Shown piece by piece: positions 5,800 to 53,026 of a stretch of DNA of 55,605 nucleotides. The translations under genes were made by a program, and so were the position numbers. Location: positions 1 through 55,605 of the forward strand of contig JAFTMD010000040.1 of assembly GCA_017452585.1 (NCBI GenBank), written 5' to 3'. The notes below the pieces were generated by a model. The model did not search any database, had not been told where the DNA came from, and saw only the letters and a program-made list of their open reading frames with translations. Each line of letters opens with the position of its first letter. Position 1 is the first letter of the stretch. Source of the DNA: Clostridia bacterium. Its GTDB lineage: Bacteria; Bacillota; Clostridia; Christensenellales; Borkfalkiaceae.

Positions 5800-5813
5800 T
5801 CAACGCATACCTG
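5800..5813 (-). repeat. iterated motif copy (13/15 to CCATGTATGCGTTGA)
   Basis: The reverse complement reads ACAGGTATGCGTTGAGATA. It lies about 34 nt upstream of the galM -35. Confidence 0.8.
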
Positions 5814-5955
5814 TATGGGGGCTGGTGTGAAATATTGTGAAATAAGGGATATGTAGACAAAAAAGTATTATATTTCGCTTTTCATGTTTTATAATTTTGC
5901 AAAAAAATTTTTACTACAATAAATGTCAAAAATGCTGCAAATTATGCCAAAAATG

Positions 5956-5983
5956 TTGCTTTTTTAAGAAAATATGCTATAAT
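5956..5983 (+). promoter_or_regulatory. promoter of the GH2-galTKE operon
   Basis: TTGCTT (5956-5961), 16-nt spacer, TGc-extended TATAAT (5978-5983). About 180-nt AT-rich leader. Confidence 0.55.
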
Positions 5984-6162
5984 ATATAAAATGGTGATAT
6001 TTTGCCAAGTGGACAATAGGCTCGCAAATTAAAAAAAATCGTCACGAAGTGGGCGCTGGATATGAGTTTATGATTAAAAAAATAGAATTTAAGCAGAACT
6101 TATTGAAAAAAAGAAAAAGTTTTTTATAATGGTATAAATAATAAAAATTGGAGGACTATGCA

Positions 6163-8505
6163 ATGTTGCAAGTGAACTTTAACAACAATTGGAGTTGGCG
6201 TAAGCTTGGCGAAGGAGAATGGAAAGAAACCGACCTTCCCCATGACGCAATGCAGTATGAAGAACGTAAGGCAGGTATGCCCAGCGGTGTAAATGCCGGT
6301 TGGTATGATTGCTATGACTATGAATATAAAAAGACGTTCACCATTCCCAAGGAATACAAAGGCAAAAAACTCGTCTTTGAATTTGAAGGGGTATACCGCA
6401 ACGCGGAAGTGTATTTAAACGGAGAAAAGGTTGCCTATCGTCCGTATGGTTACACCAATTTTTATGTGGATGCGACCACCCATGTACGCATTGACGAAGA
6501 AAATGAGATGCGCGTTGTTGCAAAAAATTCCGATCAGCCCAACAGCCGTTGGTATTCCGGTACGGGGATCTATCGTCCCGTTTCTCTTTGGATTGCCGAC
6601 GAAAAACACATCTTGCAGAATGGCATAAAGATCAAAACATTGCAAATTGACCCCGCAGTGGTGGAAATTAAGGTGCAGACCTCTTGCGAAGGGGAAGTCT
6701 TCCTCACTTTGGAAGGAAAAACGTATACGGAGCAGACGGAAAACAACACTGCAACCTTCGTTATTTCAGTGGAAAATGCAAAGCTTTGGACACCAGAAAC
6801 CCCTACCATGTATGCGTTGAACGCAAAATTCTATGAAGATACGCGCACGGAAAAATTCGGTATTCGTCTCGTTTCTTGCACGCCTGAAAAGGGGTTCTGT
6901 CTCAACGGCAAACGCGTCATTTTGCGCGGCGCTTGTATGCACCACGACAATGGGATTTTGGGTGCGAGAGAATATCGTGAAGCGGCGTTCAGAAAGGTTG
7001 CCATCTTAAAAGAAAATGGCTACAACGCCATTCGTTCGGCGCACAACCCTTGCTCGAAGGATATGTTGGACGCCTGCGACGAATTGGGTATGCTCATGAT
7101 GGACGAGTACGTAGATATGTGGTATATCCATAAGACGATGTACGATTATGCAGATTACGTGGCAGATTGGTACGAACAGGATATCGCCGACATGATCGAC
7201 AAAGACTATAACCATCCCTGCGTTGTGATGTATTCCTTCGGGAATGAAGTAGCGGAAACGGGACAAAAGCGCGGGATTGAATTTTTCAAAAAAATGCGTG
7301 ACGTCTGTCATCGTCTGGACGGCACTCGCCCGACGACGGTTGGTGTGAATATCTTCTTCAACTGGCTTCATTCGATGGGTTTTGGCGTATACAGCGACAA
7401 GAAGGCGAAGGAAAATCCTGATGCGAAGGTGGGCAGTGAGTTCTTCAACGTCGTTGCGGGCATCATGGGGGACGGATTTATGAAATTCATGGCAACCTTG
7501 TACCCTTGTGACGTCAAGACGCGCGATTGCTATGCGGCGATGGACGTTGCCGGCTATAACTACGGTATCATGCGCTATAAGCACGACGTTAAGAAATATC
7601 CAAACCGTATTATTTTGGGTAGTGAAACCTTCTGTTCGGATGCGTACGAATTCTATGAACTTGCCAAAAAATACCCCTCCATCATTGGGGACTTCGTTTG
7701 GTCGGGATTTGACTATTTGGGCGAACTTGCCCTCGGCGCATGGGAATATAAAGAATATACGGACGACTTTGTGAAAGGCTTGGGTTGGATTTCTGCAGGG
7801 CAGGGTAGAATTGACCTTGTCGGCAATCCTTACGCAGAAACGTTGTATACGAAGGTGGCGTTTGAGTTGGAGGATAAACCTTTGATTGGCGTTGTGCCCG
7901 TCAACCACACCAACGAACGTCATTCCCCCTCCGCATGGAGATGCTCCAATGCAATTCCCACTTGGTCGTGGAATGGCTTAAACGGCCAGCCTGCCAAGGT
8001 GGAAGTGTATACGCGCGCGCCCTATGTTGCGCTCTACGTCAACGAAAAACTTGTGGGTAAGAAAAAACGTGGCAACGATTGTATGGTCAAGTTTAAAACC
8101 ACCTACTTTGACGGCGAAATTACGGCGGTCAACTTGGACGAACAGGGGAAAGAACTTTCGAGACATTCCCTCCGTACGGGTGGCAACGAAACCGTTTTGT
8201 CGGTTATGCCTGAAAAGAAAGAAGTGAAGAAGGGGGAGGTTTGCTTCGTACATCTTGCGTATACGGATAAGGCATGCAACTTTAAGCCGTTGGAACACCA
8301 CAGAATTTCCGTCAAAGTGGAAGGTGGGGAATTGTTGGCGCTTGGCCATGGCGCTCCCTTCAACAAAGAAGGTTATATGAAAGCGGATACAGATACATAT
8401 TACGGTAGAGCATTGGCCGTTGTGAAAGCAACGGGGGACAAAGTTGTCATCACTGCCACCGGAAATAACCTGGTTGGCAAAGCGGAGATTTTAGTGAAAG
8501 AATGA
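6163..8505 (+). CDS. glycoside hydrolase family 2 beta-galactosidase
   Basis: ORF track 6148..8505. Start moved to the ATG at 6163 (GGAGG 6150-6154). NAEVYLNG, WYSGTGIYRPV, KLWTPETPTMYAL and NHPCVVMYSFGNE match the GH2 layout (sugar-binding domain, acid/base region). Confidence 0.9.
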   Translation: MLQVNFNNNWSWRKLGEGEWKETDLPHDAMQYEERKAGMPSGVNAGWYDCYDYEYKKTFTIPKEYKGKKLVFEFEGVYRNAEVYLNGEKVAYRPYGYTNFYVDATTHVRIDEENEMRVVAKNSDQPNSRWYSGTGIYRPVSLWIADEKHILQNGIKIKTLQIDPAVVEIKVQTSCEGEVFLTLEGKTYTEQTENNTATFVISVENAKLWTPETPTMYALNAKFYEDTRTEKFGIRLVSCTPEKGFCLNGKRVILRGACMHHDNGILGAREYREAAFRKVAILKENGYNAIRSAHNPCSKDMLDACDELGMLMMDEYVDMWYIHKTMYDYADYVADWYEQDIADMIDKDYNHPCVVMYSFGNEVAETGQKRGIEFFKKMRDVCHRLDGTRPTTVGVNIFFNWLHSMGFGVYSDKKAKENPDAKVGSEFFNVVAGIMGDGFMKFMATLYPCDVKTRDCYAAMDVAGYNYGIMRYKHDVKKYPNRIILGSETFCSDAYEFYELAKKYPSIIGDFVWSGFDYLGELALGAWEYKEYTDDFVKGLGWISAGQGRIDLVGNPYAETLYTKVAFELEDKPLIGVVPVNHTNERHSPSAWRCSNAIPTWSWNGLNGQPAKVEVYTRAPYVALYVNEKLVGKKKRGNDCMVKFKTTYFDGEITAVNLDEQGKELSRHSLRTGGNETVLSVMPEKKEVKKGEVCFVHLAYTDKACNFKPLEHHRISVKVEGGELLALGHGAPFNKEGYMKADTDTYYGRALAVVKATGDKVVITATGNNLVGKAEILVKE
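6806..6820 (+). repeat. iterated motif copy (15/15)
   Basis: CCATGTATGCGTTGA, exact, inside the GH2 CDS, read as T-M-Y-A-L-N. The following AACGCAAAA is also shared with the copy in the glyQS terminator. Confidence 0.9.
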
Positions 8506-9941
8506 GAAAGATTGATCAAGTAATCAGCGATTTGATAGCGTATGCCAAAACCCACCTTCATTTATTGGAGGAAGATACCATGTATGCGTTGAATTCCATT
8601 TTAGAGCTGTTAAATTTGGAGAGCGTGGAGATTGTTCCGCCTGAAAACAGCTTTGAAAAGCCTGACGCATTGTTGGAAGAATTGGTGGCGTACGCTCTGC
8701 AGGAAAAGCGCATAGAAGAATGGGAGCAGGAACGCTTGTGCGACCAAGTGATGGGGCTTTTGTCCCTGCGTCCTTCGGAAGTTCAGAAGGAGTTTGATAA
8801 GCGTTACGCCGTTGGGGCAAAAGAAGCCACTGATTGGTTTTATGGCTATTGTGTTTATAATTATTATGTAAAGCGCGCGCGATTGGATAAAAATCCTCGC
8901 TTTGACGTGAACGGTTTGACGGTTACGATCAACAAGTCCAAGCCCGAATTTCGCGATCCAAACAAGGCGAAGGCGGGTAATTCCGTCAAAGGGGGATATC
9001 CCAAATGCGTCATTTGTCGAGAAAACGAAGGGTATGCGCCCCGTGATAAACGTACGTTGCGTGCGGTGTCCATGACGCTCGGTGGAGAAAACTTCTTCTG
9101 GCAGTATTCTCCGTACGGCTATTTTCATGAACACGGGATTGCCGTCAACTGCACCCATACCCCCATGTACGTGGATAAATCCACCTTCTATAAGCTGATG
9201 GATTTCGTCGATTTATTTCCCCATTATTTCATTGGTTGCAACGCGCCTCTGCCTCGCATTGGAGGGAGCGTTCTCGCGCATGACCACTACCAAGGCGGTG
9301 GAGAAATTCTCCCTTTGCACAAGGCGAAGATTAAAACCTATCTGCAAATGGAAGGGTATGACAGCGTGAAAATTGGCATTCTCGATTGGCCGGGGACGGT
9401 GCTTAGAATCGTCGGTGAGGACAGAGATGCTATTGCAGAAGTGGGGGATAAAATCCGCTTGGCATGGAATGTCTATTCCAATCCCGCCCTGCAAATTGTG
9501 GCAGAGGACGAGAATGGCGTGCATAATGCCATCAGCCCTACTGTGATAAAGCAGGGGGGCAGGTATGAGATGAACATCATTTTACGTTCGAATATCACAA
9601 ACTCACAATATCCCGACGGCATCTTCCATGCGCATCCCGAATACCATATGATCAAGAAGGAGAGCATTGGCCTTATCGAAGCGCAGGGGCTGTTTATTCT
9701 CCCCGGTAGATTGGAAGCGCAACTTGCGGAAGTGGAAAAGTGTATAGCGAATGGACAGCTCAGTGAGGACTTGCAGGAATTTGCGCTCGTCTATGAAGAA
9801 GTGAAGGCGATGGGTGGAGATATTCACGAAGGAATGCAGAGGGAACTCGGTTCAATTTGTCAAAGAATTTTGGAAAATACAGCGGTGTTTACCGACGAAC
9901 AATTCATTGAATTTTTAAAAGGAGTGGGTTGCCATGAATGA
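8502..9941 (+). CDS. galT: UDP-glucose--hexose-1-phosphate uridylyltransferase (long, type 2)
   Basis: 479 aa, the length and layout of the Firmicute-type GalT. HDHYQGG histidine motif. The start ATG overlaps the GH2 stop (ATGA 8502-8505). Confidence 0.9.
   Translation: MRKIDQVISDLIAYAKTHLHLLEEDTMYALNSILELLNLESVEIVPPENSFEKPDALLEELVAYALQEKRIEEWEQERLCDQVMGLLSLRPSEVQKEFDKRYAVGAKEATDWFYGYCVYNYYVKRARLDKNPRFDVNGLTVTINKSKPEFRDPNKAKAGNSVKGGYPKCVICRENEGYAPRDKRTLRAVSMTLGGENFFWQYSPYGYFHEHGIAVNCTHTPMYVDKSTFYKLMDFVDLFPHYFIGCNAPLPRIGGSVLAHDHYQGGGEILPLHKAKIKTYLQMEGYDSVKIGILDWPGTVLRIVGEDRDAIAEVGDKIRLAWNVYSNPALQIVAEDENGVHNAISPTVIKQGGRYEMNIILRSNITNSQYPDGIFHAHPEYHMIKKESIGLIEAQGLFILPGRLEAQLAEVEKCIANGQLSEDLQEFALVYEEVKAMGGDIHEGMQRELGSICQRILENTAVFTDEQFIEFLKGVGCHE
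8578..8592 (+). repeat. iterated motif copy (15/15)
   Basis: CCATGTATGCGTTGA, exact, inside galT, read as T-M-Y-A-L-N. Confidence 0.9.
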
Positions 9942-11049
9942 ATACGCTTATAAAGTGACGGCGGCGGGCCGTATCAACATCATTGGTGAACACGTGGACT
10001 ACTGCGGTGGGAAGGTGTTTCCTGCGGCGCTGACCTTGACGAACACCGTTTACGTACGTCCAAACGGCACCAATCAAATCAATTTGTCGTGGACGACGTT
10101 GCCCGATAAGGTGACGCTCGATTTGGATAAATTGGAGAGTTATCAGGATTTAAAATATGGAAATTATCAAGCAGGGAGTGCCTTGATGTGGAAACGCGCA
10201 GGGCATAAACTGGTTGGTTGCGATATGTTGCAGGATTGTAAAGTTCCCTTCGGTTCAGGGCTTTCCTCCTCGGCGGCGATGGAAGTGTCGACGATTGCGG
10301 CGCTCGCCGTGGTGGCAGGGGAAGAGGTTGATCCTGTAGAAATTGCCCTTCTTGCGCAGAAGGCAGAGCGTGAATATACGGGCGTCAACTGTGGGATTAT
10401 GGATCAATACGCCTCCGCTTGCGGGAAAAAGGATATGGCAATGCTGCTCGATTGCAAGGAGCTCACCTGCTCGTATGTGCCTTTGGAACTTGGCGAATAC
10501 GCGCTTGTCATTGCCAACACCAACAAACCGCACAGCCTTGTGGTGAGCAAGTATAACGAACGTCGCGCGGAGTGCGAAGAAGCACTTGCGATTTTGCAGG
10601 AAAAACTCCCCATCACCTGTTTGGCAGAGCTTAAGAAGGAAGATTTGGAGACACATAAACATCTGCTTCGTGAAATCGTGTATACGAGGGTCAGCCACGT
10701 CGTGGAAGAATGTGAACGCGTCAACCAAGCTGTGCAAGCAATGCAAGCGGGGGATATTCCCTTGCTTGGGAAATTGCTCAACGCTTCCCATGCGTCTTTG
10801 AAAAATAAGTATGAAGTGACGGGTATTGAACTGGATACGTTGGCGGAATCCGCCCAAAGACAGGGGGCATGTATGGGTTCACGTATGATTGGCGGTGGAT
10901 TTGGCGGTTGTACCATCTCGATCGTCAAGCAGGAATGCGTGGAAGAATTTAAGAAAATTGTCAGCAAAGAATACGAAGATGTCATTGGCTATGCACCTAC
11001 CTTCTACGAGGCGGGCATTGGCGATGGAATCACCGTAACGAAATTATAA
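9934..11049 (+). CDS. galK: galactokinase
   Basis: [15 protein letters not shown] (galactokinase signature) and [11 protein letters not shown] (GHMP kinase motif). Overlaps the galT end by 8 nt. Confidence 0.92.
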
Positions 11050-12216: not shown

Positions 12217-12798
12217 ATGGAAAGAGGAGTAAAAAGGCAAAACGAAGGGGGTATGTATGCGTTGAGCGCAAAATACTTCCTTCTATTCATGCTCATTTCC
12301 TTCTTTGGTTGGGGATTTGAGGTGCTGTTGATGCGCGTATTGTACGGGGAATGGTTCGATCGTGGCTGGATGCAACTTCCCTTCTGCCCCATCTACGGCA
12401 GTTCGGTGATGGCGATCTATTTCTTATTGGGAACACCCGACGAACCGAGAGGGATTTTACGGGGAATCACGGGGCGAACGAAATGCATATTGGCGTACTT
12501 GTTCTTCGCATTCCTCATTCCTACGTTGGCAGAATTGATAGTGGGAGCATTTTTCGATGAGGTTATGCACAGGGAATTGTGGACGTATGTGGGGTTGCCG
12601 TTTAGCTTTCGTGGATACATCAGTTTGCCCGTTTCTTTGGGGTGGATGGGGTTGATTTTTGTGTTCATGAAGTGGCTGTTTCCCTTCTTACGCAAGGCGA
12701 TCCTGCGTATTCCAAATGGCGTAGCTACCCTGTTGGCAAGCGTGCTGTTGTTGGTCAGTGTTGCAGACGTGTACTATTCTTTTTTCGTTAATAGGTAA
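12217..12798 (+). CDS. small polytopic membrane protein resembling the 'putative ABC-transporter type IV' (CmpB-like) family
   Basis: ORF track 12199..12798. FFGWGFEVLL...RGWMQLPFCPIYG resembles that family as I recall it. Start uncertain: ATG 12217 has GGGAGG 10 nt upstream, and ATG 12253 lies inside an iterated-motif copy. Confidence 0.6.
   Translation: MERGVKRQNEGGMYALSAKYFLLFMLISFFGWGFEVLLMRVLYGEWFDRGWMQLPFCPIYGSSVMAIYFLLGTPDEPRGILRGITGRTKCILAYLFFAFLIPTLAELIVGAFFDEVMHRELWTYVGLPFSFRGYISLPVSLGWMGLIFVFMKWLFPFLRKAILRIPNGVATLLASVLLLVSVADVYYSFFVNR
12251..12265 (+). repeat. iterated motif copy (13/15)
   Basis: GTATGTATGCGTTGAGCGC, read as G-M-Y-A-L-S at or near the 5' end of the membrane-protein gene. 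Confidence 0.8.
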
Positions 12799-13185: not shown

Positions 13186-13596
13186 TTATTGACTGCGCTG
13201 ATCGCTTAAAAAACGATAGGCGGAAACCCCGATGATACTCGACAGGGGGATAGTGAAGGCGATACCCTTCCCGTTTTTCAGTGTGTGGAACTTTTCGTTT
13301 AAGCCCTGCAAAATCCCTTCCGCCAAATCTTCGCGAAGGATGCTGAAAAGGACGCTTTTGTCCGATTCGTCTAAACCAAGCAGATAGAGCGTATCACTTG
13401 AGGCGGTGCCTTTGCCTGCAACGGCTGTTTGAAAGTTGACGCCTTGCGAGGTTAAATAATCCATATACGAATCCGCCTTATGGCGGTTGACGACGGTAAC
13501 GAGGAGTTTTAATTTCCGAAAATCCGTCTTAAGAGGCTGGGGCCTCGTTTGGGGAGTTTGCGTGTCTTTTTTGGTTTGTTTTTTAAATAAACGCAT
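13186..13596 (-). CDS. P-II-like protein with an N-terminal basic extension
   Basis: 136 aa. LKLLVTVVNRHKADSYMDYL...GKGTASSD...GKGIAFTIPLSSIIGV shows a PII-like fold pattern. The start codon lies inside an iterated-motif copy. Confidence 0.7.
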   Translation of the reverse strand: MRLFKKQTKKDTQTPQTRPQPLKTDFRKLKLLVTVVNRHKADSYMDYLTSQGVNFQTAVAGKGTASSDTLYLLGLDESDKSVLFSILREDLAEGILQGLNEKFHTLKNGKGIAFTIPLSSIIGVSAYRFLSDQRSQ

Positions 13597-13602
13597 ACAT
13601 GG
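13590..13602 (-). repeat. iterated motif copy (14/15)
   Basis: The reverse complement reads GGTACCATGTATGCGTTTA. It fills the gap between the DUF1538 stop and the start of the second PII gene. Confidence 0.85.
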
Positions 13603-15234: not shown

Positions 15235-15258
15235 GCATACTATGTATGCGTTGAGATA
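15235..15258 (+). repeat. iterated motif copy, long palindromic form (14/15 core)
   Basis: GCATAC-TAT-GTATGC-GTTGAGATA. Intergenic, between divergent operons. Confidence 0.85.
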
Positions 15259-15365: not shown

Positions 15366-15377
15366 GAACAAATGTTT
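15366..15377 (+). promoter_or_regulatory. LexA (Cheo-box-like) operator candidate
   Basis: GAACAAATGTTT lies immediately after the -10. It matches the Gram-positive SOS box GAAC-N4-GTTC in 11 of 12 positions. uvrB is a classic SOS gene. Confidence 0.6.
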
Positions 15378-17427: not shown

Positions 17428-17447
17428 CCCATGTATGCGTTGAGATA
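17428..17447 (+). repeat. iterated motif copy (15/15 core)
   Basis: CCCATGTATGCGTTGAGATA, 22 nt after the uvrB stop. Preceded by GGGTGG (17413-17418), which can pair with CTACCC. Confidence 0.9.
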
Positions 17448-20272: not shown

Positions 20273-20314
20273 AAAACATGGGTGGTTCATTTTTGTGAGA
20301 AAAACAAAAACGGG

Positions 20315-20404
20315 CCACCCATGTATGCGCTGAACGCTATGTCCTTGGCTTCTCCTTGAGGAGAAGCTGTCGAAAACGAAGTTTGGGACTGATGAGGTGG
20401 AAAA
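20315..20404 (+). repeat. 90-nt direct repeat, copy 1 (left flank of the XRE cassette)
   Basis: Matches 21120-21209 with 4 mismatches. Begins with an iterated-motif copy (CCCATGTATGCGCTGA, 20318-20333) and contains the hairpin CTTCTCC-TTGA-GGAGAAG (A-family left arm, 20342-20400). Confidence 0.9.
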
Positions 20405-20420
20405 GAGAATTTATAAGCCA

Positions 20421-20436
20421 CCCATGTATGCGTTAA
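20421..20436 (+). repeat. iterated motif copy (14/15)
   Basis: CCCATGTATGCGTTAA. The 22 nt ATTTATAAGCCACCCATGTATG (20409-20430) are identical to 21111-21132. Confidence 0.85.
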
Positions 20437-20446
20437 TATAGGAAAA

Positions 20447-20671
20447 TTAAAATTCTTTAGGGCGTTCTACGCAAAGAATTTCATTGGCATCTAAATCCAA
20501 CACGGTGCAAAGTCTGGAAAAGGTATCCAAGGCAGGCAAGGTTTTTCCAGTGAGATAGCTGGAAATTTGTTGTTGTCGAACACCGATTTTTGCGGCGATC
20601 TCCCTCTGTGTTAAATGACTCTGTTGAATGGCTTCCGCTAACTTTTTTGAAATTTCAATGATGGTTGTCAT
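20447..20671 (-). CDS. XRE-family helix-turn-helix regulator
   Basis: 74 aa. LTQREIAAKIGVRQQQISSYLTGKTLP is a canonical HTH_3 pattern. Confidence 0.85.
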   Translation of the reverse strand: MTTIIEISKKLAEAIQQSHLTQREIAAKIGVRQQQISSYLTGKTLPALDTFSRLCTVLDLDANEILCVERPKEF

Positions 20672-21119: not shown

Positions 21120-21209
21120 CCACCCATGTATGAGGTGAACGCTATTTCCTTGGCTTCTCCTTGAGGAGAAGCTGTCGAAAACGAAGTTTGAGACTGATGA
21201 GGTGGAAAA
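21120..21209 (+). repeat. 90-nt direct repeat, copy 2 (right flank of the XRE cassette; leader of DUF559)
   Basis: See 20315-20404. Begins with the motif copy CCCATGTATGAGGTGA (21123-21138, 13/15) and contains the A-family left arm (21147-21205). Confidence 0.9.
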
Positions 21210-21655
21210 TGAATTCTATACAAAATCCTAAATTAACACTGAATGCCCGAAAACTCCGCAAGGAGATGACGGAAGAGGAACGGAAACTTTGGTATACATT
21301 CTTGAAAAAGTTGCCATTTACGGTGCATAGACAAAAGGTGATACAGCGGTATATTGTAGATTTTTATATCGCTGAAGCGAAAATTGTGATAGAACTAGAT
21401 GGTTCTCAGCATTACGAGGAAAAGGGCGAACAGGCGGACAAGGAAAGAGATTTGGCGTTGAAAGAGTTAGGCTTTACTGTGTTGCGCTATACAAATTTAG
21501 ATATACAACGAAAATTTAAAATGGTCTGTGAGATATTTGGAATCGGGTGGAAGCCGCAGTTGCCACCTCATCCGTCACTCCGTGACACCTTCTCCTCAAG
21601 GCGAAGGCAAGGGGGGATTTTCAGCGAAGGCAAGGGGCATGTATGCGTCGAATGA
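21209..21655 (+). CDS. DUF559 endonuclease-fold protein (Vsr-like); C-terminal tail reads into repeat DNA
   Basis: ORF track 21161..21655. Start moved to the ATG at 21209 (MNSIQNPKL). ARKLRKEMTEEERKLWYTFLKK...FTVHRQKVIQRYIVDFYIAEAKIVIELDGSQH...LGFTVLRYTNLDI matches the DUF559 pattern. The last ~35 aa (PHPSLRDTFSSRRRQ...) are encoded by the A-family right arm. Confidence 0.8.
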   Translation: MNSIQNPKLTLNARKLRKEMTEEERKLWYTFLKKLPFTVHRQKVIQRYIVDFYIAEAKIVIELDGSQHYEEKGEQADKERDLALKELGFTVLRYTNLDIQRKFKMVCEIFGIGWKPQLPPHPSLRDTFSSRRRQGGIFSEGKGHVCVE

Positions 21656-26989: not shown

Positions 26990-27007
26990 ATACCATGTAT
27001 GCGATTA
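26990..27007 (+). repeat. iterated motif copy (13/15)
   Basis: CATACCATGTATGCGATTA, with a partial palindrome (CATAC-CAT-GTATG). Lies between the twin terminators. Confidence 0.8.
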
Positions 27008-31256: not shown

Positions 31257-31276
31257 GCATACCATGTATGCGTTGA
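31257..31276 (+). repeat. iterated motif copy, palindromic form (15/15 core)
   Basis: GCATAC-CAT-GTATGC-GTTGA. Confidence 0.9.
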
Positions 31277-32297: not shown

Positions 32298-33598
32298 CGA
32301 AATTGCCCGAACAATTTATCGAAAATATGAAAAAACAGCTTCCCGAACAGGAATGGGAGGCTTTTTTTGCCGTCTATGAAAATCCTCCGTACAAAGGGGT
32401 GCGTTTAAACCCGTTGAAGGGTACCATGTCTGCGTTGACGGAGCTTTTACCCTTCTTGGGTGAACCCATTCCGTGGGAGGAAAACGGCTTTTATACCACG
32501 GCAGAGAGGGTGGGAAATTCTCCCTTCCACGCTGCGGGGCTTTTCTATTCGCAAGAGCCGTCTGCCATGAGCGCAGCGCCACTTTTGCAGGTGCAGCCGG
32601 GGGAAAGAGTGCTCGATCTTTGCTCCGCGCCCGGAGGAAAGGGAACGCAACTCGCTTGTAAAATGGCGAGGAAGGGATTGATTGTTTTAAACGAGCCCGT
32701 TTTTGCGCGCGCGAAGATCTTGTCGCAGAACGTGGAGCGCATGGGCATTCCCAATGCCGTCGTTATCAGTGAACTGCCTGAAAAACTTTCGACAAAATTT
32801 GCGGGGTATTTTGATAAAATTCTCGTTGACGCCCCCTGTTCGGGGGAAGGAATGTTCCGCAAAAATGCGGAGGAAGCCCTTGGTGAATGGTCGCAAGAAA
32901 ACGTGGAAATGTGTGCCGAACGGCAAGCGCATATTTTGGAAGAAGCCACAAAAATGTTGACGGTTGGGGGGAAGCTTTGCTACTCAACCTGCACCTTCTC
33001 CACACTCGAAGACGAGGGGCAGGTATGCGATTACTTACAAAAACACCCTGAAATGCGGCTTTTGAAATCGGAAAAATTATACCCGCACAAAGTGGCAGGT
33101 GAAGGGCATTTTGTTGCGCTTTTTGAAAAGATTGCCAAGAGTGGGGAATGGGATACTCGTCTGAAGGAGTGTAAACTTTCTTGTACGCAGGATGGGCAGA
33201 AAGCCTATCGCGCCTTTGAAAAGGAATTCTTCCACGAAAAATTTGCCACGAGGCTTTATGAAGCGAATGGAATTTTGTACGATTTGCCGGAAGGGATGTT
33301 CGATTGGAAGGGGCTTCAGGTGCTTCGCGTTGGCGTACGCTTGGGGGAAGTGAAAAATGGTCGGTTTGAACCCTCCCACTCGCTTGCCCTCTGCACAAAA
33401 AAGGAAGATTGTAAACGAGTGGTCGATTTATCGGAAGAGGATCTTCGATTGGAAAAATATTTCAAAGGAGAAACGATAGAGGTGGAGGAAATTTCCAACG
33501 GTTGGTGTCTTGTTTGCGTACATGGGTACCCCGTCGGGCTTGGAAAGGCGGTAAATGGCACACTCAAAAATCATTATCCAAAGGGACTTCGACATTAA
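32294..33598 (+). CDS. RsmB/RsmF-family rRNA cytosine-C5 methyltransferase
   Basis: 434 aa. DLCSAPGGKGTQLA SAM motif, VDAPCSGEGMFRK and YSTCTFS catalytic Cys motifs, C-terminal PUA-like part. The start overlaps the previous stop (ATGA). Confidence 0.88.
   Translation: MTKLPEQFIENMKKQLPEQEWEAFFAVYENPPYKGVRLNPLKGTMSALTELLPFLGEPIPWEENGFYTTAERVGNSPFHAAGLFYSQEPSAMSAAPLLQVQPGERVLDLCSAPGGKGTQLACKMARKGLIVLNEPVFARAKILSQNVERMGIPNAVVISELPEKLSTKFAGYFDKILVDAPCSGEGMFRKNAEEALGEWSQENVEMCAERQAHILEEATKMLTVGGKLCYSTCTFSTLEDEGQVCDYLQKHPEMRLLKSEKLYPHKVAGEGHFVALFEKIAKSGEWDTRLKECKLSCTQDGQKAYRAFEKEFFHEKFATRLYEANGILYDLPEGMFDWKGLQVLRVGVRLGEVKNGRFEPSHSLALCTKKEDCKRVVDLSEEDLRLEKYFKGETIEVEEISNGWCLVCVHGYPVGLGKAVNGTLKNHYPKGLRH
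32424..32438 (+). repeat. iterated motif copy (14/15)
   Basis: CCATGTCTGCGTTGA inside the methyltransferase CDS, read as T-M-S-A-L-T. Confidence 0.8.
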
Positions 33599-37800: not shown

Positions 37801-38244
37801 TTTATCTGCGGTCGTAAGGGAATCCCATTGACTGATGGCGTCTTTGATTTGCATTTCAGCAATCTGTTCGTCCGTCTTGGTGCGTTCCGTCAAATCTTTC
37901 CAAGCATCTTCAGCCGTGTCAATGACACCGCTTGCCGATTTGGAGGAGGGAGCAGAACCGGTCGTTGCGGAGTTTACCGAACGAGACCAACCGGTAACTG
38001 ACGTACCGATTTTAACGGTTTCGCTGAGTTTAGTGAAGTCAAAATGACTATTCTTAATTGTCCCGTTATCCACTCTGTCCGTTGTGGAGCTGGAGCTCGA
38101 CGAAGAGGAAGAGCTGGAGGAGGACGAGGAATCGGTATTGTTTTCCGTACAGGAAGCAAATGCTGCGCCCATGGAGGAGAGCACCATTACCGATAAGAAG
38201 AGGGCAAGGAACTTGCTCTTGCGAGTGTTGTTTGTTGTTTTCAT
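34840..38244 (-). CDS. large surface protein of unknown function: lipoprotein signal, poly-Ser linker, C-terminal TM anchor
   Basis: 1134 aa. N-terminus MKTTNNTRKSKFLALFLSVMVLSSMGAAFASC (FASC lipobox), then S17. Acidic DLDDDDNDTEEDVETDEDG, then the TM helix VFMLISSIAVAAALLVAIGGIA and a Lys-rich tail. I recognise no catalytic motif. Confidence 0.8.
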   Translation of the reverse strand: MKTTNNTRKSKFLALFLSVMVLSSMGAAFASCTENNTDSSSSSSSSSSSSSSSTTDRVDNGTIKNSHFDFTKLSETVKIGTSVTGWSRSVNSATTGSAPSSKSASGVIDTAEDAWKDLTERTKTDEQIAEMQIKDAISQWDSLTTADKLAFYEDWEDRDANEKLDIDEEFEKVKEDVYQSFNIDSEDLPTVANPGTPENQPDKDQAGKDREVDTQVLMLHNNNSIGTAQKFTSSSRKITAGSAAKFSIWVKTSGLTSVDSSKNEQAAVDKGAYISISQTVGGKTLDPYMIKNIQTDEWTEYTFYIKGSSFADTSFTIALGLGQGGGTDHLDYVNGYAFFDNITFEEVEFNNYPDDIANEVTLETKKEDKIVNVNKTAQKTFSMDFHKAEWKALPADYAINGEAGLTTSSDGSKANSKLKSDEDINKYYANNAALEAAATSGYLKTVYEHFFKDTEEDNDFYKNNTSSTLMMLSAKGAAYTWEDAYKFTMDAETDQMAVSFFVKTSDFDEGTGLTITLNHGKNSTSFSSISTADLTGVTIDGIEDYYDGWQRCYFFLERGEDLEGAQEFSLTLNYGPTDVTVSTANTAFSAGFAALTQFETLNMSAREYECAQTGTYAQKYTLKAEADEEAAGNAGFDTVAGTPTNALENGLANPQNYKGVYNDSYYVALPDKGGNNREINAYANAGLLNKTSFLESYDNIAELNKDAAWFKGLQKEGANAEEIWKNVFGNATQPLLIWNDGMDGKSYGFFGNSTTISASHTAISVRVKTSEGAKASIYLVDMNDETRQSFLSVNGILTYWYDDNGNIWTGDPLKDGSELAFRLNKKTGLYSADKKWSGYSEVIKENAYANLSAYTEKDGVLYAAENSAKHYYHNSDWDRAVFFKQGNDWYTEKTGGTKVLDIKGLVEPRYTEEADRNLCVENVETNGEWKTITFYVKKGNAAKNYRLEVWSGTRAGESNPAGTYVIFDTNNPGTASSNYDGLLEEYKDSENVVDSFESVFSYYDTDKHVRYEKAKDTDEVGNLYIDSFMQSSYESGYAYLKYVENGNYTIFADYSFADVTITPAAPDLDDDDNDTEEDVETDEDGMNVFMLISSIAVAAALLVAIGGIATQRILKVVKKRKAAKAHVNVVKKNK

Positions 38245-42625: not shown

Positions 42626-42642
42626 CAAAAAATATATCTGAA

Positions 42643-42659
42643 CTCATACCTGGTATGAG
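42643..42659 (-). repeat. degenerate palindromic iterated-motif copy (12/15)
   Basis: CTCATACC-T-GGTATGAG. The reverse complement CATACCAGGTATGAGTTCAGATA aligns with the long consensus. Confidence 0.6.
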
Positions 42660-44652: not shown

Positions 44653-44702
44653 ACTGATATACAAGCTTGATTTAAGTGGCAGACAAAAAAGGGGTGACGG
44701 TT

Positions 44703-47391: not shown

Positions 47392-47415
47392 GGCATACCA
47401 GGTATGCGTTGAGAT
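47392..47415 (+). repeat. iterated motif copy, long palindromic form (14/15 core)
   Basis: GCATAC-CAG-GTATGC-GTTGAGATA, 5 nt after the helicase stop. Confidence 0.9.
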
Positions 47416-48509: not shown

Positions 48510-51052
48510 AACTTTTATCCTATCACATTGAAAATTACGGAAAAATTCACGACCAAGACGGGAATTTTTCAGAGGGAATTACCTCCTATTGCGAGCAGAA
48601 CGGCTTTGGTAAAAGCACCCTCGTTTCCTTTCTAAAGGCGATGTTTTACGGCCTTGCCTCGTACACGGCTGTCACGAAAGGGTTTGTCGATCGCCTGCAT
48701 TACTATCCCTTCAGCGGTGGAAAATTCGGGGGCAATTTAACCTTTTTCTGGGAAGGGGACGTATATAAAATTGAACGTTTTTTTGATAAAAAGAGTGCAA
48801 AAGGGGACGAGTGTATCGTCTATCGAAACGGCGAAGTGTATACGGGTTTTGGAGAGGAAATTGGCAAGGCTGTGTTTGGCTTAGATGAGGAGTCCTTCCA
48901 AAAAACGCTCTTTATCACCGCCGAGGACGTGGAAGTTTCCTCCACGCACAGCATCAATGAGAAATTGAACAGCAGCGTAGAAGGTGGATTGGAAGAAAAC
49001 GACTTTGAAGGGGCGATGGAGGCCCTCGATCGGGCGAGAAAGGATTTGAAAGCCGCCCGTGGCTCTGGTGGTAAAATCAATGAAACCAAGACGGCAATCT
49101 CCGATTTGAGTATACAGTTAAAAAATTATGAAGACATGGAGAGAAGCTTGACGGAGGCGTATATCTCTCGAGAGGGGCTTTCACGGGAGGTTGCTACGCT
49201 AGAGGACGCCTATCAAGAAGCGGGCGCGCGAGGGCTGGTGTTGCAAAAATGGGAAACCTTCGATAGAATGATTGCCAAGAAAAAGGAGCGTGAGGAAACG
49301 CTTGCTAAGTGGCAATTGCGCTATCCCAACGGCTTGCCGAACGACGAGGAACGCAAAGAATTGCAAAAAAACGTCGAAGAAATGGGAAAATTGGAGGAGC
49401 GTTTGCATTCGGTTGCCTTCCCCAGCGGAAAGGAAACGGAACGAAAAATGTTGGAAAGCAGGTTTTCCAATGGTATTCCCAGCCCCACTTTGATGAATAC
49501 AATGCAAGAAAAAATCAATCGTCTGCAAACGGCAAAAGGGGAACGAGAACGTCTGATGAATCAGACTTTGACGGTGGAGGAAACCCTGCTCAAACAGAAA
49601 TTCCAGGATAAAAAACCTACCTTGCAGGATTGGCAGGAGGGGAGGAATTCGTTGGAGGAATACAAGCGAAAACAGGCGCTACTTTCCGAATTGTCTTCCA
49701 AACTGCTGCAACCGAAAAAAGAGGAGAAAAAATTCTCCTTTAAAACGTACGCGTTGGTGATTGGCTGCGCCCTTCTCTGCGCTGGGTTGGGACTTTTCTT
49801 CGTACAGATGATTTTGGGGATTGCGCTTATGGGGAGCGGGGTAGTTTTTTTGGTGGTAAGCCTGCTCATGAAGTCCGTGAACGCAGACATGCCCCGGCCC
49901 AATGGTGATTTTGACGTCGTTTCTTTGCAATCAGAATGTAAGCTTTTAGAGGAAAAACTCCGCACGTTTACCATTCCGTACGGGTATTATAGTGAGGGTG
50001 GCGTCGTGTATGATTTCCTGCAGATGGAGGAAGGATTTAAAAATTATCAGGCGCTTTTGGAAAAGGAAGAGGCCAGTCAGGCGCAGGTGAAGGAAATCAC
50101 CGAGGAAATGGAAACTTTACAACGGGAAATTCAGCTTTTCTTGCATACGTATGGGGAGCGAACGGAAAACTTACAAAGCGGTTTGCAACAGATCTATGTG
50201 GCAATCCAAAGTTATCAGACGTTGACGCAGGATTGGGAAAATTCCAAGCGCGAACAAGCCCAATTAAAAGAGCTTTATCAAAAGGCAAAAGACGAGGTAG
50301 AGAAGTTGCTTCAAAAGTACAATTTCTCTGCGGACGCAGGTACCATGTATGGGTTGAGCGCATTAAATCGGGACATTTTGTCCATCGCGCATACCCGCGC
50401 GGAAGTGGAAAATTTGCGGTTAGAATTGGAAGATTATCAAGAAAAAAACGACTTGGGCGAACGCCCCGAAGAACTGTCCGTATCGGCGCAGGAACTCTAT
50501 CATTCGTTGTCCGAAGCGCGTAATAGATTGCTCGATTGCGATCGCAAAATTGTCGATACCGAGCGGTATGTTGAGAAAAAGGCGGATACGCAAGTGGAAT
50601 TGGCGCTTGCGGAGGAGAAATTGGAAAAACAGCAGGACACGTACGAACTGTTGATGGACACAATGATTGCCATCGAAAATGCAGAACAGCGGTTGAAAGA
50701 TCAGTATATTGCGCCCATTAAGGGGAGATTTTCCGTGTACGTCCAAGCGCTGGAAAAGGTGTTGGACGAGAAGGTGAGCATGGATAAAAACTTCCGCATC
50801 GTCTTTGAACGTGGCGGACAGTCACGTAGTGATCGGTACTTAAGCGCCGGGGAAAAGAGCGTTTGCGCACTCTGTATGCGCTTGGCGCTCATTGACAATA
50901 TGTACGAAGGGGAACAGCCGTTTATTTTGATGGACGATCCATTTGTGCATCTGGACGCGATACATTTAGAGCGCGCCAAAAAGCTATTGCATGAGTTATC
51001 TGAACGCCGTCAGATTTTGTATTTTTGCTGTCATGAAAGTAGAAAAGTTTAA
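48506..51052 (+). CDS. SbcC/Rad50-like AAA ATPase with a central transmembrane hairpin
   Basis: 848 aa. N-terminal QNGFGKST Walker A, long coiled coils, C-terminal LSAGE signature and ILMDDPF Walker B. The coiled-coil apex is replaced by two hydrophobic helices (YALVIGCALLCAGLGLFFVQMILGIALMGSGVVFLVVSLLM, nt ~49746-49872). Confidence 0.85.
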   Translation: MKLLSYHIENYGKIHDQDGNFSEGITSYCEQNGFGKSTLVSFLKAMFYGLASYTAVTKGFVDRLHYYPFSGGKFGGNLTFFWEGDVYKIERFFDKKSAKGDECIVYRNGEVYTGFGEEIGKAVFGLDEESFQKTLFITAEDVEVSSTHSINEKLNSSVEGGLEENDFEGAMEALDRARKDLKAARGSGGKINETKTAISDLSIQLKNYEDMERSLTEAYISREGLSREVATLEDAYQEAGARGLVLQKWETFDRMIAKKKEREETLAKWQLRYPNGLPNDEERKELQKNVEEMGKLEERLHSVAFPSGKETERKMLESRFSNGIPSPTLMNTMQEKINRLQTAKGERERLMNQTLTVEETLLKQKFQDKKPTLQDWQEGRNSLEEYKRKQALLSELSSKLLQPKKEEKKFSFKTYALVIGCALLCAGLGLFFVQMILGIALMGSGVVFLVVSLLMKSVNADMPRPNGDFDVVSLQSECKLLEEKLRTFTIPYGYYSEGGVVYDFLQMEEGFKNYQALLEKEEASQAQVKEITEEMETLQREIQLFLHTYGERTENLQSGLQQIYVAIQSYQTLTQDWENSKREQAQLKELYQKAKDEVEKLLQKYNFSADAGTMYGLSALNRDILSIAHTRAEVENLRLELEDYQEKNDLGERPEELSVSAQELYHSLSEARNRLLDCDRKIVDTERYVEKKADTQVELALAEEKLEKQQDTYELLMDTMIAIENAEQRLKDQYIAPIKGRFSVYVQALEKVLDEKVSMDKNFRIVFERGGQSRSDRYLSAGEKSVCALCMRLALIDNMYEGEQPFILMDDPFVHLDAIHLERAKKLLHELSERRQILYFCCHESRKV
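50343..50357 (+). repeat. iterated motif copy (14/15)
   Basis: CCATGTATGGGTTGA inside the SbcC-like CDS, read as T-M-Y-G-L-S. Confidence 0.8.
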
Positions 51053-52552: not shown

Positions 52553-52584
52553 AAAAAACGGATGCAGCTGCATCCGTTTTTTTG
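52553..52584 (+). terminator. intrinsic terminator
   Basis: ACGGATGCAG-CTGCATCCGT perfect palindrome, flanked by A6 and T7. Confidence 0.85.
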
Positions 52585-52707
52585 TGCATGAAATACGGCG
52601 AAGCGGAATTTCGCAGAAACTACGTGATAGTCGCGTGGTTGGTGGCGGTTTACCAATGAGTAGAAAAACTTATTTTTTGTTAATACGAATACAATAAAGA
52701 TAGTAAA

Positions 52708-52907
52708 CTTGCCTTCTCCTTGAGGAGAAGGTGGCGGCGAAGCCGTCGGATGAGGTGGAATATTGTTTTACATTAAGAACACCTCATCAGTCACTCAACG
52801 TGCTACGCTTCGTGTTCGTGACAGCTTTTCCTTCAGCGGAGACGCAAACCCCTTTGTCCTGCGGACATTTCCCCTAGCAGGGGAATTTCCTCAAGGGGAA
52901 GCCAAGG
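52708..52907. repeat. 'empty' A-family inverted-repeat pair (no gene between the arms)
   Basis: The left arm CTTGCCTTCTCCTTGAGGAGAAGGTGGCGGCGAAGCCGTCGGATGAGGTGG (52708-52758) and the right arm CACCTCATCAGTC...TCCTCAAGGGGAAGCCAAGG (52770-52907) are homologous to the arms flanking DUF559. They are separated by only 11 nt. Confidence 0.8.
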
Positions 52908-52982
52908 AAAGTGCCGTTTTCACGATTGGTCGGTAAAGGATGTATGACTGTTTGATCAACCCAAGATCCATTTATGCTATAC

Positions 52983-53026
52983 ACAAAAACGGGGGCAGGT
53001 TTTGCGTTCAACGCATACCTGCCCCC
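52983..53026 (-). terminator. glyQS terminator containing an iterated-motif copy
   Basis: Minus strand: GGGGGCAGG-TATGCGTTGAACGCAAAA-CCTGCCCCC followed by GTTTTTGT. The motif copy is at 53008-53021 (13/15). Confidence 0.85.

Follow-up and report, generated by a model that had tools for sequence, protein, structure and literature searches.

Copies of the motif in the window

The window is the whole stretch of 55,605 nucleotides analysed here. Within its genes and in the spacers between them a 15-base word, CCATGTATGCGTTGA, is iterated as a real and highly repeated signal, as the initial annotation had proposed. The copies are:

5800..5814, minus strand: ACAGGTATGCGTTGA with GATA tail, divergent spacer upstream of galM (match scan, matrix)
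6480..6494, plus strand: in-gene CCATGTACGCATTGA, GH2 beta-galactosidase, frame T-H-V-R-I-D (ungapped against PDB 7rsk; matrix scan)
6806..6820, plus strand: exact in-gene copy, GH2 beta-galactosidase, encoding T-M-Y-A-L on the conserved 'P-x-L-Y-x-L'
8578..8592, plus strand: exact in-gene copy, galT residues 26-30, frame T-M-Y-A-L (galT models match from residue 1-2)
9559..9573, plus strand: weak GCAGGTATGAGATGA after GGGGG, within galT (matrix score 18.2)
10867..10881, plus strand: weak GCATGTATGGGTTCA after GGGG, within galK (matrix score 15.7)
12251..12265, plus strand: GTATGTATGCGTTGA after GGGG, at or near the 5' end of a CmpB-like membrane protein gene
13588..13602, minus strand: copy separating a DUF1538 stop codon from the start of a P-II-like gene (both genes minus), the motif's second ATG being the start codon of the latter
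15240..15254, plus strand: copy with arm GCATAC-TAT-GTATGC and GAGATA tail, divergent spacer upstream of uvrB
17429..17443, plus strand: exact copy, spacer from uvrB to uvrA, 12 nt ahead of the uvrA start
20319..20333, plus strand: copy after uvrA, its first bases forming the 3' arm of a 21-nt hairpin (20276-20296 / 20304-20324)
20422..20436, plus strand: copy at the left edge of an HTH-HTH module, within the 30-nt repeat AAAAGAGnATTTATAAGCCACCCATGTATG
21124..21138, plus strand: copy bordering the HTH-HTH module on the right; the second copy of a 102-nt repeat comes next
21637..21651, plus strand: GCATGTATGCGTCGA after GGGG, flanked by two tandem units of 105 nt downstream of a DUF559 gene
26993..27007, plus strand: copy behind gyrA with full upstream box AAAATGCCCATA, followed by hairpin and T-tract
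31262..31276, plus strand: exact copy in the serS-exonuclease spacer, bearing the palindromic arm and preceding a terminator
32424..32438, plus strand: in-gene CCATGTCTGCGTTGA, rsmF, frame T-M-S-A-L (L187 orthologue has GCATGGCTGCGTTGA)
33019..33033, plus strand: weak GCAGGTATGCGATTA after GGG, within rsmF (matrix score 16.4)
42639..42653, minus strand: degenerate CCAGGTATGAGTTCA, maf-mreB spacer (exact copy in the orthologous spacer of L160)
47398..47412, plus strand: copy with full upstream box, palindromic arm and GAGATA tail, the helicase stop TAA lying exactly 10 nt upstream
49878..49892, minus strand: weak anti-oriented GCATGTCTGCGTTCA, within an SbcC-like gene (matrix score 18.1)
50343..50357, plus strand: in-gene CCATGTATGGGTTGA, SbcC-like gene, frame T-M-Y-G-L
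53008..53022, minus strand: GGGGGCAGG-form copy in the terminator hairpin GGGGGCAGG...CCTGCCCCC-GTTTTT after a class II aminoacyl-tRNA synthetase gene (glyQS in the initial annotation)

With two or fewer mismatches the word is matched 18 times, as against 0.11 ± 0.31 matches expected from dinucleotide shuffles of the window, none of 100 of which reached 18. The 17 copies counted initially stand as an observation, with one plus-strand copy at 6480 (CCATGTACGCATTGA) missed; its addition changes the orientation from 14 plus and 3 minus to 15 and 3. The minus copy placed at 13590 starts at 13588. Among the degenerate copies proposed, that at 33019 is supported by the weight-matrix scan, and the one near 42643 is a copy with three mismatches, located at 42639 and on the minus rather than the plus strand. 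Those at 36195 (given as 36197), 45323 and 48019 have four mismatches each, a class that barely exceeds chance in the window (18 seen, about 11 expected by our own count), and nothing was found at 50872. The weak copies at 9559, 10867 and 49878 (minus) were added by the weight matrix. The density corresponds to a copy every 3 kb in the window and roughly every 10 kb in relatives.

Intergenic copies have a full unit of 28-31 nt, AAAAYGRGCATA-CCATGTATGCGTTGA-A, and sequence shared between copies ends at that length. The site is long, asymmetric and information-rich, with a core of 14-15 nt; the core's sub-words of 6-8 nt show no enrichment apart from full copies. The palindromic extension GCATAC-NNN-GTATGC described initially was confirmed at 15240, 31262 and 47398, and a complementary arm preceding a copy (ACATGGGTGG...CCACCCATGT at 20276/20304) is real; a GAGATA tail occurs at 5800, 15240, 17429 and 47398 and is absent at 31262. 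Overall, a 6-bp palindrome with one covarying base pair is present in about one third of copies, and the small hairpin of the unit is weak (−6 kcal/mol, mean z-score −0.8).

The repeat-rich island at 20.3-21.7 kb holds four copies. A two-gene HTH module is flanked by 30-nt direct repeats ending in the motif, resembling an att core.

Distribution among related genomes

At least 38 species-level MAGs, from 'Candidatus Scatosoma' and uncultured gut Clostridia related to it, contain the exact 17-mer TACCATGTATGCGTTGA, at loci with a GC content of 38 to 55%, and unrelated taxa and viral contigs gave single matches only. Scanned with the weight matrix, 597 kb of clade DNA returned 224 copies, compared with about 3 in shuffled sequence. 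Throughout this lineage each genome has hundreds of copies.

Position is conserved as well. The initial annotation had proposed a comparison of motif positions between relatives, and copies are often kept at orthologous sites of genomes just 65-80% identical, an apparent conservation that is inflated by the recovery of most related loci through exact seeds. The orthologous site of L187 holds an exact copy matching that at 31262 in the serS-exonuclease spacer, and in L123 an exact copy lies immediately 3' of the uvrA stop codon; the copy at 17429 is missing from the orthologous uvrB-uvrA spacer of L123, this spacer being longer where the motif is present. Close genome pairs at hand showed no insertion polymorphism at orthologous motif sites.

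The initial annotation had named two outcomes that would refute its reading, a history of local duplication and identity with the end of a known IS or MITE family; the four copies in the island would speak for this explanation. It can practically be dismissed, given the occurrence in at least 38 other genomes with nothing shared beyond 28-31 nt and single matches only in viral contigs. The IS and plasmid sequences searched gave no match, nor did phage.

Association with gene ends

The motif is associated with gene ends. Non-coding sequence, 13% of the DNA, holds 111 of 149 copies, which adjoin gene ends and lie beside or within terminators; a terminator follows many copies, and terminator stems are built from the GGGCAGG form. 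In about a dozen copies a stop codon lies exactly 10 nt upstream, often overlapping the TAAAA of the unit. Close pairs are direct in 25 cases and inverted in 5; the direct pairs, in places forming head-to-tail arrays, have spacings of 31 nt (13 times) or 41-42 nt (7 times), equivalent to about 3 and 4 helical turns. The clustering around repair genes suggested initially was not supported: in-gene copies lie in beta-galactosidase, galT, galK, rsmF and the SbcC-like gene, and the arrays of relatives adjoin unrelated housekeeping genes.

One serious rival among the interpretations considered below is a REP-like extragenic repeat of 28-31 nt, in which the hairpin and a conserved 3' flank (GTTGA) would be the target of an HUH enzyme (RAYT / IS200-like), or one similar to it, that copies the unit into gene-end spacers and builds arrays. 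The concentration in spacers, both gene-end and intercistronic ones, the arrays of whole units, the palindrome with its covarying pair, the stop codons overlapping TAAAA and the longer uvrB-uvrA spacer all suit this model. We nevertheless regard it as unlikely, because the hairpin is weak, the unit has no GTAG-type 5' box, copies are stable at orthologous sites without insertion polymorphism in close pairs, and an exact core is common to at least 38 species. A REP consensus is usually confined to one species or one RAYT type. No Y1 transposase was found in the roughly 650 kb sampled, which is weak evidence as the query was approximate.

Copies within genes

Coding copies lie mostly in one frame, as had been observed, with T-M-Y-A-L dominant (6806, 8578, 32424, 50343, 12251) and 6480 differing (T-H-V-R-I-D). 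Of 12 MYAL occurrences 11 use ATGTATGCGTTG, and of 6 NAYM occurrences 5 use the reverse complement. The GH2 copies align with PDB homologues without gaps, that at 6806 reading 'lwtpetptmyaln' against 'lwsidnpylyqvv', and the V-ATPase subunit I gene of L151 contains a complete 28-nt consensus with its length unchanged relative to 8wci. These findings show that in-gene copies arise by substitution and not by insertion. The absence of a length change, even with a complete unit, further argues against the REP-like model.

Orientation

GC skew is positive across the whole window, and the plus strand is therefore the presumed leading strand throughout. The initial annotation held that polarity follows transcription. 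The window offers one informative case, the copy at 13588, which alone separates gene strand from skew strand; divergent and convergent spacers are uninformative. All clear in-gene window copies are co-oriented, and in spacers between co-directional genes 49 copies are co-oriented and 13 anti-oriented, the spacer bias being 3-4:1. In relatives, strong in-gene copies do not support the claim, with 13 co-oriented and 19 anti-oriented. At least four anti-oriented copies lie within Pfam domain matches, and one anti-oriented copy is preserved intact in three species with 53-73% identity in the flanks. Overall, strong in-gene copies divide 19 to 19, so that both strands of genes are occupied, and by replication strand 16 are leading and 17 lagging. 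With genes on the leading strand co-oriented copies prevail by about 5:1, and with genes on the lagging strand the ratio is about 1:1. When orientation was compared with gene strand and skew, the spacer bias of about 4:1 was inseparable from a replication-strand bias; the co-orientation of the window corresponds to only about 3:1 elsewhere and is not assignable to transcription or replication.

These data bear on three further alternatives. An RNA-level signal in 3' UTRs or intercistronic regions, acting in mRNA stability, processing or translation termination, would account for the co-oriented spacer and window copies and for the recurring 10-nt stop-codon distance. The presence of in-gene copies on both gene strands, including the anti-oriented one conserved in three species, argues against an mRNA signal, as do the lagging-strand genes without preference, the weak structure and an Rfam search without a family match; we consider it quite improbable. 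Lower still is the probability of a polar chromosome motif of Chi or KOPS/SRS type, read by AddAB or an FtsK/SpoIIIE translocase. The G-rich strand does carry 83% of window copies and about 78% of the spacer copies of relatives, at a density comparable to that of Chi, but the core of 14-15 nt with its unenriched sub-words, the 16 to 17 split of in-gene copies, and the spacer concentration and tandem arrays are unlike Chi or KOPS. The 5:1 and 1:1 ratios would suit a single-strand mechanism of the REP-like kind.

The other serious rival is a network of binding sites for a chromosomal protein (a nucleoid-organising, partition-like, translocase-guiding or site-specific recombination factor), with a putative bipartite site of an AAAAYG box and a CAKGTATGCGTTGA box and cooperative binding at arrays. 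Direct-pair spacings of about 3 and 4 helical turns, the long asymmetric site, conservation of positions across genera, the lack of strand preference in genes and the att-like repeats around the HTH module favour it. Known chromosomal site networks have shorter or palindromic sites in far fewer copies. Here, selection would have to make and keep hundreds of 15-28-nt matches site by site, some of them within genes; the arrays lie beside unrelated housekeeping genes, and no candidate binding protein was found. Its probability is small, on a par with that of the REP-like model.

Comparison with known repeats

Competent Neisseriaceae and Pasteurellaceae cells preferentially take up and recombine signal-bearing fragments. 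The neisserial DUS is GCCGTCTGAA and the Pasteurellaceae USS is AAGTGCGGT with AT-rich flanks; both characteristically form inverted pairs. Like these, the motif is a short asymmetric word, hugely over-represented in a clade of family level with minor variants. In genes it is accommodated by the choice of codons and residues, not by insertion; it occupies both gene strands and favours certain frames. It is concentrated at gene ends and built into terminators, and has an extended AT-rich flanking consensus best met outside genes. The likeness to uptake sequences drawn initially thus holds for clade-wide conservation, substitutional origin in genes and the tie to gene ends and terminators. It fails for density, arrays and inverted pairs: classical DUS/USS number roughly 1,000 or more copies per genome (PMC1852404), the motif being 3-10 times less dense, and neighbouring copies are mostly direct, head-to-tail, and rarely inverted. 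Further differences are the longer core (28-31 nt with flanks), the strand bias of spacer copies, and a host of Gram-positive type, where sequence-specific uptake is not known to occur.

REP/BIME elements of enterobacteria and pseudomonads, associated with RAYT transposases, share 28-35-nt units clustered in gene-end and intercistronic spacers, a small palindrome and frequent nearness to stop codons; the motif differs in its substitutional in-gene copies, its weak and optional palindrome, its direct rather than alternating arrays and its single core across many species, besides lacking the GTAG box and any RAYT in the DNA sampled. Neisserial dRS3/NIME and cyanobacterial HIP1 (GCGATCGC) are likewise highly repeated short words whose function is unknown or debated. 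In genes, HIP1 spreads through substitution; dRS3 is a mark of spacers and acts as an integration site. Both are short palindromes or inverted repeats, unlike the long asymmetric motif. Chi and KOPS/SRS are also strand-biased, over-represented words at about one per several kb, but they have 5-8 nt, lie mostly in genes and owe their numbers mainly to chance and mild selection, whereas the motif's sub-words are not enriched alone and its strong in-gene copies have no skew.

A possible double-stranded DNA signal

By analogy, the motif most resembles DNA uptake signals, and we tentatively favour, as possible rather than probable, a signal in double-stranded DNA that host machinery reads and that substitutional drive has spread, being neither a mobile element nor an mRNA signal. 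To our knowledge, the molecular drive behind Neisseriaceae and Pasteurellaceae uptake sequences is the only documented process of this kind, such signals are known solely from these two Gram-negative families, and Gram-positive uptake is sequence-independent wherever studied. Several observations weigh against the uptake reading, in addition to density, arrays and rare inverted pairs: the bipartite unit is longer than known uptake signals, the spacer strand bias is not predicted by uptake, the fixed 10-nt stop-codon distance could point to insertion, and the covarying base pair hints at a single-stranded form.

In the favoured reading, a conserved host machine of this Clostridia lineage would recognise the motif as double-stranded DNA. 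New copies would appear by point substitution wherever the sequence is tolerated and would be kept by a bias towards better matches, the driving process presumably being biased DNA uptake. Coding constraint would keep most copies out of genes, leading to their accumulation in short gene-end spacers, which would allow the full 28-31-nt form and the incorporation of some copies into terminator stems. On its opposite strand the unit would form a small hairpin followed by TTTT, resembling a terminator, and selection against such antisense hairpins inside operons could cause the spacer orientation bias. The reverse strands of 31262 and 47398 were flagged by the scan as hairpin plus T-tract.

Abundance and distribution of the motif

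The 15-mer CCATGTATGCGTTGA occurs 18 times in the 55.6-kb window at two or fewer mismatches (15 copies on the + strand, three on the − strand), against 0.11 expected from dinucleotide-preserving shuffles, and every one of 100 such shuffles held at most one copy. The initial annotation was therefore right about the iteration, although its list lacked the copy at 6480 and gave as 13590 the copy that starts at 13588. A-rich words and one protein repeat aside, the top 9- to 11-mers of the window are words of the motif. Sub-words shorter than the motif are not enriched outside full copies, and the motif unit is hence really about 15 nt long.

In 597 kb of DNA from the clade, that is 'Candidatus Scatosoma' and related uncultured gut Clostridia, 224 copies were counted, compared with about three in shuffled sequence. 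The window has one copy every 3 kb and the relatives have about one every 10 kb. The relatives are MAGs only, viewed as 8-kb blocks at loci (L-numbers) gathered by exact seeds, so that this sample is biased to conserved copies. Variants resembling dialects, GTACGCG and GCAGGTATGCG, recur among the copies.

Among one genome per bacterial or archaeal species, the 17-mer TACCATGTATGCGTTGA was found in at least 96 stretches. About 80 of those listed belong to the clade and come from at least 38 species-representative MAGs, labelled 'Candidatus Scatosoma' or unclassified Clostridia or Clostridiales, from human, chicken, goat, sheep and deer guts; the remaining stretches among the matches listed are single matches in unrelated phyla. 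The motif is thus not local to the window; confinement to it was an outcome that the initial annotation had named as refuting. Clade loci usually contain extra copies, and unrelated loci contain the seed copy alone. In the viral contigs scanned all matches were single, and a metagenome scan with an 18-mer gave 32 matches, the true ones mostly on short contigs of assembly JAEIGA01. Identity of 68–82% to four clade loci over syntenic genes indicates that the window belongs to the motif-bearing lineage, though to none of the sampled species.

One copy each of the 17-mer is also present in unrelated loci (L138, L195, L196, L201, L213; L105, L193, L199) of Binatia, Desulfobulbaceae and environmental contigs, where it encodes part of a conserved stretch of protein (GTMYALN(A/G)HEKHY; SSGSTTMYALK). 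Such matches are coincidences of coding and lie outside the repeat family.

Anatomy of the unit

Alignment of spacer copies gave a unit that reads AAAA-Y-G-R-G-C-A-T-A, then CCATGTATGCGTTGA, an A and an A/T-rich tail; beyond 28–31 nt the sequence is not common to the copies. In 27 of 84 copies (about a third) the left part extends to a full 6-bp palindrome, GCATAC-CAT-GTATGC, whose third pair covaries, being A with T or, in the GTACGC variant, G with C. A second form has a G run in place of the left arm (GGGGGCAGGTATGCGTTGA) and often contributes an arm to a true terminator stem, examples being 53008 in the window and copies in L106, L111 and L158. Inverted GGGCAGGTATGCGATGA stems are found in L106, L111 and L124.

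Close pairs of units are direct in 25 cases out of 30 and inverted in the other five, and the direct pairs are spaced by 31 nt (13 times) or 41–42 nt (seven times). Relatives carry head-to-tail arrays of two to four units:

L157, 3948–4083
L140, 2200–2276
L101, 5230–5275
L106, L111 and L124

At the last three loci a CCATG-type unit is followed 41–42 nt later by a GGGCAGG-type unit, and an inverted copy of the latter completes the terminator stem. A protein bound to one face of double-stranded DNA accounts best for direct pairs that are spaced by helical turns. Such a protein is compatible with an uptake receptor and equally with some other chromosomal binding protein. The same spacing speaks for a network of protein-binding arrays, a reading we consider improbable.

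Genes adjacent to arrays (SPFH, DegV, DNA polymerase III delta', aldo-keto reductase and solute-binding protein) are unrelated in function; the arrays are therefore not a regulon, and an operator was rejected on this ground. A promoter with TTGAAA as −35 box was discarded since no consistent −10 box lies at the right distance. The CcpA cre, the LexA box and the DnaA box do not fit the motif, mini-ORF readings (ATG CGT TGA; MGIPCMR*) are lost among variants, and an integron attC or dif-like site is a misfit in length and architecture.

Location at gene ends and within genes

Gene calls followed a heuristic of our own, a codon-usage model fitted to long ORFs, by which 111 of 149 strong copies lie in non-coding DNA, which makes up 13% of clade DNA, and 38 inside genes. 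About a third of the window's spacers are occupied by the motif. Spacer copies are located at gene ends: about a dozen have the stop codon precisely 10 nt upstream, where it overlaps the TAAAA of the unit, and 3' of many there follows a hairpin with a T-tract, or directly the next ribosome-binding site. Convergent spacers hold 20 copies against 10 in divergent ones.

The exact copy at 6806 encodes P-E-T-P-T-M-Y-A-L-N, which aligns ungapped with I-D-N-P-Y-L-Y-Q-V-V of the GH2 structure 7rsk and falls on the conserved 'P-x-L-Y' stretch of GH2; the copy at 6480 aligns to 7rsk likewise without gaps. In L151 the complete 28-nt consensus, CAAAATGAGCATACCATGTATGCGTTGAAAG, stands within a V-ATPase subunit I gene, whose product is equal in length to an Enterococcus homologue between well-aligned anchors on either side. 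MYAL is written as ATGTATGCGTTG in 11 of 12 occurrences, where 48 codings are possible, and NAYM as the reverse complement of ATGTATGCGTTG in five of six. The ungapped alignments and the skewed coding show substitution in the DNA to be the origin of in-gene copies: the force behind them acts on DNA and not on protein sequence, and it does not work by insertion. No clean insertion polymorphism of the unit was seen among the few close genome pairs.

These in-gene copies bear on whether the unit is a REP-like element. It shares size, spacer location and clustering with REP/BIME elements. For the imperfect palindrome of 20–40 nt with a stable hairpin that typifies them the evidence is mixed: the 6-bp arm has one covarying pair, and the consensus unit folds at −6.3 kcal/mol with a mean z-score of −0.8. 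REP/BIME elements are, however, strictly extragenic, whereas roughly a quarter of the strong motif copies are in genes, several of them verified by Pfam domains and PDB homologues. The substitutional nature of these copies and the breadth across species also argue against such an element, as may the weakness of the hairpin, and we hold it to be improbable. No RAYT or Y1 transposase gene is present within the window, and an approximate IS200 TnpA query had no tblastn match below E = 0.1 across about 650 kb.

The end of a known IS or MITE, a longer element with terminal repeats and target duplications, was the other outcome that the initial annotation had named as refuting; it was rejected because copies share no sequence past 28–31 nt, there is no plasmid or IS match and viral matches are single. 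BLAST of a 40-nt consensus against plasmids gave chance matches only.

Orientation

GC skew is positive over the entire window, and +, the presumed leading strand, carries most genes. Every clear in-gene copy in the window is co-oriented with its gene, but as all those genes are on +, co-orientation there is uninformative on cause. Spacers flanked by divergent or convergent genes yield no information on it either, which leaves 13588 as the one copy at which gene strand and skew strand differ.

The relatives supply the contrast. Their strong in-gene copies are co-oriented in 13 cases and anti-oriented in 19 (19:19 with the window included). Weak in-gene copies, scored with a more sensitive matrix, lean towards co-orientation, 54:33. 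At least four anti-oriented copies lie within Pfam domain matches (RCC1-like domain, aldehyde dehydrogenase, dehydroquinase and V-ATPase subunit C), and three species with 53–73% identity in the flanks all carry one anti-oriented in-gene copy unaltered. With this copy retained, an mRNA signal is excluded as a general explanation. A structured cis-RNA requires the transcribed strand, with which conserved anti-oriented copies inside genes are at odds, and an RNA-level signal of any kind appears very improbable. Rfam searches, at gathering thresholds for the window and permissive ones for the uvrA-gyrB island and eight array-bearing loci, gave no match overlapping the motif.

By skew strand, 16 of the strong in-gene copies are leading and 17 lagging. 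Polar motifs of the Chi or KOPS type are skewed to the leading strand in genes too, and they are words of 5–8 nt, in contrast to a motif whose sub-words are unenriched by themselves; we give a motif of this type hardly any credence.

Spacer copies between co-directional genes are co-oriented in 49 cases and anti-oriented in 13. Split by local skew, there are 46–53 co-oriented against 7–10 anti-oriented copies next to leading-strand genes, and 2–3 against 2–5 next to lagging-strand genes, strands being assigned by our own heuristic from the noisy skew of 8-kb blocks. The initial annotation had held that polarity follows transcription. As a pure rule this is rejected by the co-directional spacer copies (Fisher p = 0.002), and 13588 is the one copy in the window that could inform it. 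Because of the small lagging-strand numbers and the noisy skew, a replication rule is not established either. The orientation bias of about 3:1 is real. A terminator scan flags the reverse strand of the unit at 31262 and 47398 as a hairpin followed by TTTT, and a candidate cause of the bias is that the unit, read in reverse as a terminator, may be harmful within operons.

Conservation of position

Orthologous regions often keep their motif positions even where genome identity is only 65–80% (L145/L173/L182; L113/L164; L127/L136/L143). Comparisons of window sites with single loci, which are free of the seed bias, gave the following:

31262: orthologous site exact in L187
20319, after uvrA: copy in the window and in L123, arrangements differing
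42639, degenerate: exact in L160
32424: L187 site with three mismatches
13588: L171 site with four mismatches
17429, uvrB-uvrA spacer: absent in L123

About half of the testable copies of the window are shared at about 70–80% identity.

Comparison with DNA uptake sequences

The DNA uptake sequences of Neisseriaceae and Pasteurellaceae (DUS/USS) occur about once per kb, with at least 1,000 copies per genome (PMC1852404). Like them, the motif is a fixed short word, greatly over-represented in window and clade DNA alike, and is common to related species with dialects, as in the clade MAGs. Its in-gene copies are made by substitution, on either gene strand and in preferred frames, its copies are concentrated at gene ends and terminators, and its extended consensus is AT-rich. 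It departs from DUS/USS in a density 3–10 times below that benchmark, in a longer unit, in close pairs that are mostly direct and in the strand bias of its spacer copies. As to the closely spaced inverted pairs that form terminator stems in DUS/USS the picture is mixed: five of 30 close pairs of the motif are inverted, yet inverted GGGCAGGTATGCGATGA stems exist in three loci and the window copy at 53008 is part of a terminator stem. In behaviour DUS/USS are the closest known system, and the analogy drawn in the initial annotation is the best at hand, though still unestablished. Competent cells preferentially take up DNA with DUS/USS and have a specific receptor for it; competence genes are absent from the gene content of the 55.6 kb, and literature searches for the motif string, Clostridia uptake sequences and Scatosoma returned nothing relevant beyond general USS facts.

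The finding itself is real and extends far past the window. By analogy, the motif might be a double-stranded DNA signal that is read by the host and spread by uptake-like drive, a reading we favour only tentatively. That it is the first uptake signal outside Proteobacteria, belonging to an uncultured family-level lineage of gut Clostridia with sequence-specific natural transformation and spread by molecular drive as a 15-nt core in a 28–31-nt unit, is a doubtful proposition at present. Were the motif an uptake signal, sequence-biased transformation would have evolved independently in Gram-positive-type gut anaerobes, a sequence tag would be at hand to trace gene flow within the clade in metagenomes, and donor DNA bearing the motif would offer a handle for the genetics of an uncultured lineage. 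Were it REP-like or protein-binding instead, it would still be an undescribed, clade-defining genomic signal that constrains protein sequences (T-M-Y-A-L and N-A-Y-M patches) and marks gene ends and terminators. On either reading it is a taxonomic marker useful for binning and a clean test case for long motifs spreading by substitution.

Gene content of the window and other repeats

The window contains ordinary housekeeping genes:

LRR surface protein, galM, GH2 beta-galactosidase, galT, galK, galE
DUF1538/P-II operon; uvrB, uvrA, gyrB, gyrA
P-type ATPase, serS, exonuclease, rsmF, chromate transporters, ppx, maf, mreB
UvrD-like helicase, SbcD/SbcC-like genes, class II aminoacyl-tRNA synthetase

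No transposase or recombinase genes were found in the window, and a scan of it for tRNA and tmRNA was negative.

The uvrA-gyrB spacer of the window (20273–22350) has about 2.1 kb, against only about 280 nt at the syntenic locus L123. This island comprises:

20447–20671 (−) and 20774–21118 (+), XRE-type HTH genes
21209–21655, DUF559 endonuclease-like gene
20314–20415 and 21119–21220, 102-nt direct repeat
21507–21611 and 21651–21755, 105-nt tandem

The HTH pair is flanked, in the manner of an att core, by a 30-nt repeat with the motif at its end. At 52705–52910 a palindromic, MITE-like element some 200 nt long separates a small ORF from the synthetase terminator; it has the modules CCTTCTCCTTGAGGAGAAGG and GATGAGGTGG in common with the repeats of the 20–22 kb island. 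With up to two mismatches allowed, the word GACTGATGAGGTGG occurs six times in the window, and it is missing from all 192 loci compared. A hammerhead-like CUGAUGAG box, contained here and in the island repeat, has no Rfam match, was seen in this genome only and was set aside as belonging to a different repeat.

Residues 536–696 of the UvrD/PcrA-like helicase (44676–47387, +) form an RNase_T (DEDDh) exonuclease domain that interrupts its C-terminal helicase domain. An ORF of 1134 residues (34840–38244, −) with a strong coding signal and no Pfam match lies within a 15-kb stretch (32.4–47.4 kb) free of strong motif copies. At 1–1133, inside the − strand gene for an LRR/PARCEL-type surface protein, lie tandem repeats of 69-nt (23-residue) and 177-nt period. 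They are the source of CAATCGAAGTTACGCTGTC, which ranks second in frequency among the long words of the window. A LexA-box-like GAACAAATGTTT (15366–15377) lies just 3' of a −10-like TATAAT upstream of uvrB; the sequence around it is still alignable with L123, and it is distinct from the motif copy at 15240. A DnaA-box-like TGTGGATAA (22227–22235) stands upstream of gyrB, and gyrB and gyrA adjoin uvrBA in the window rather than dnaA/dnaN.
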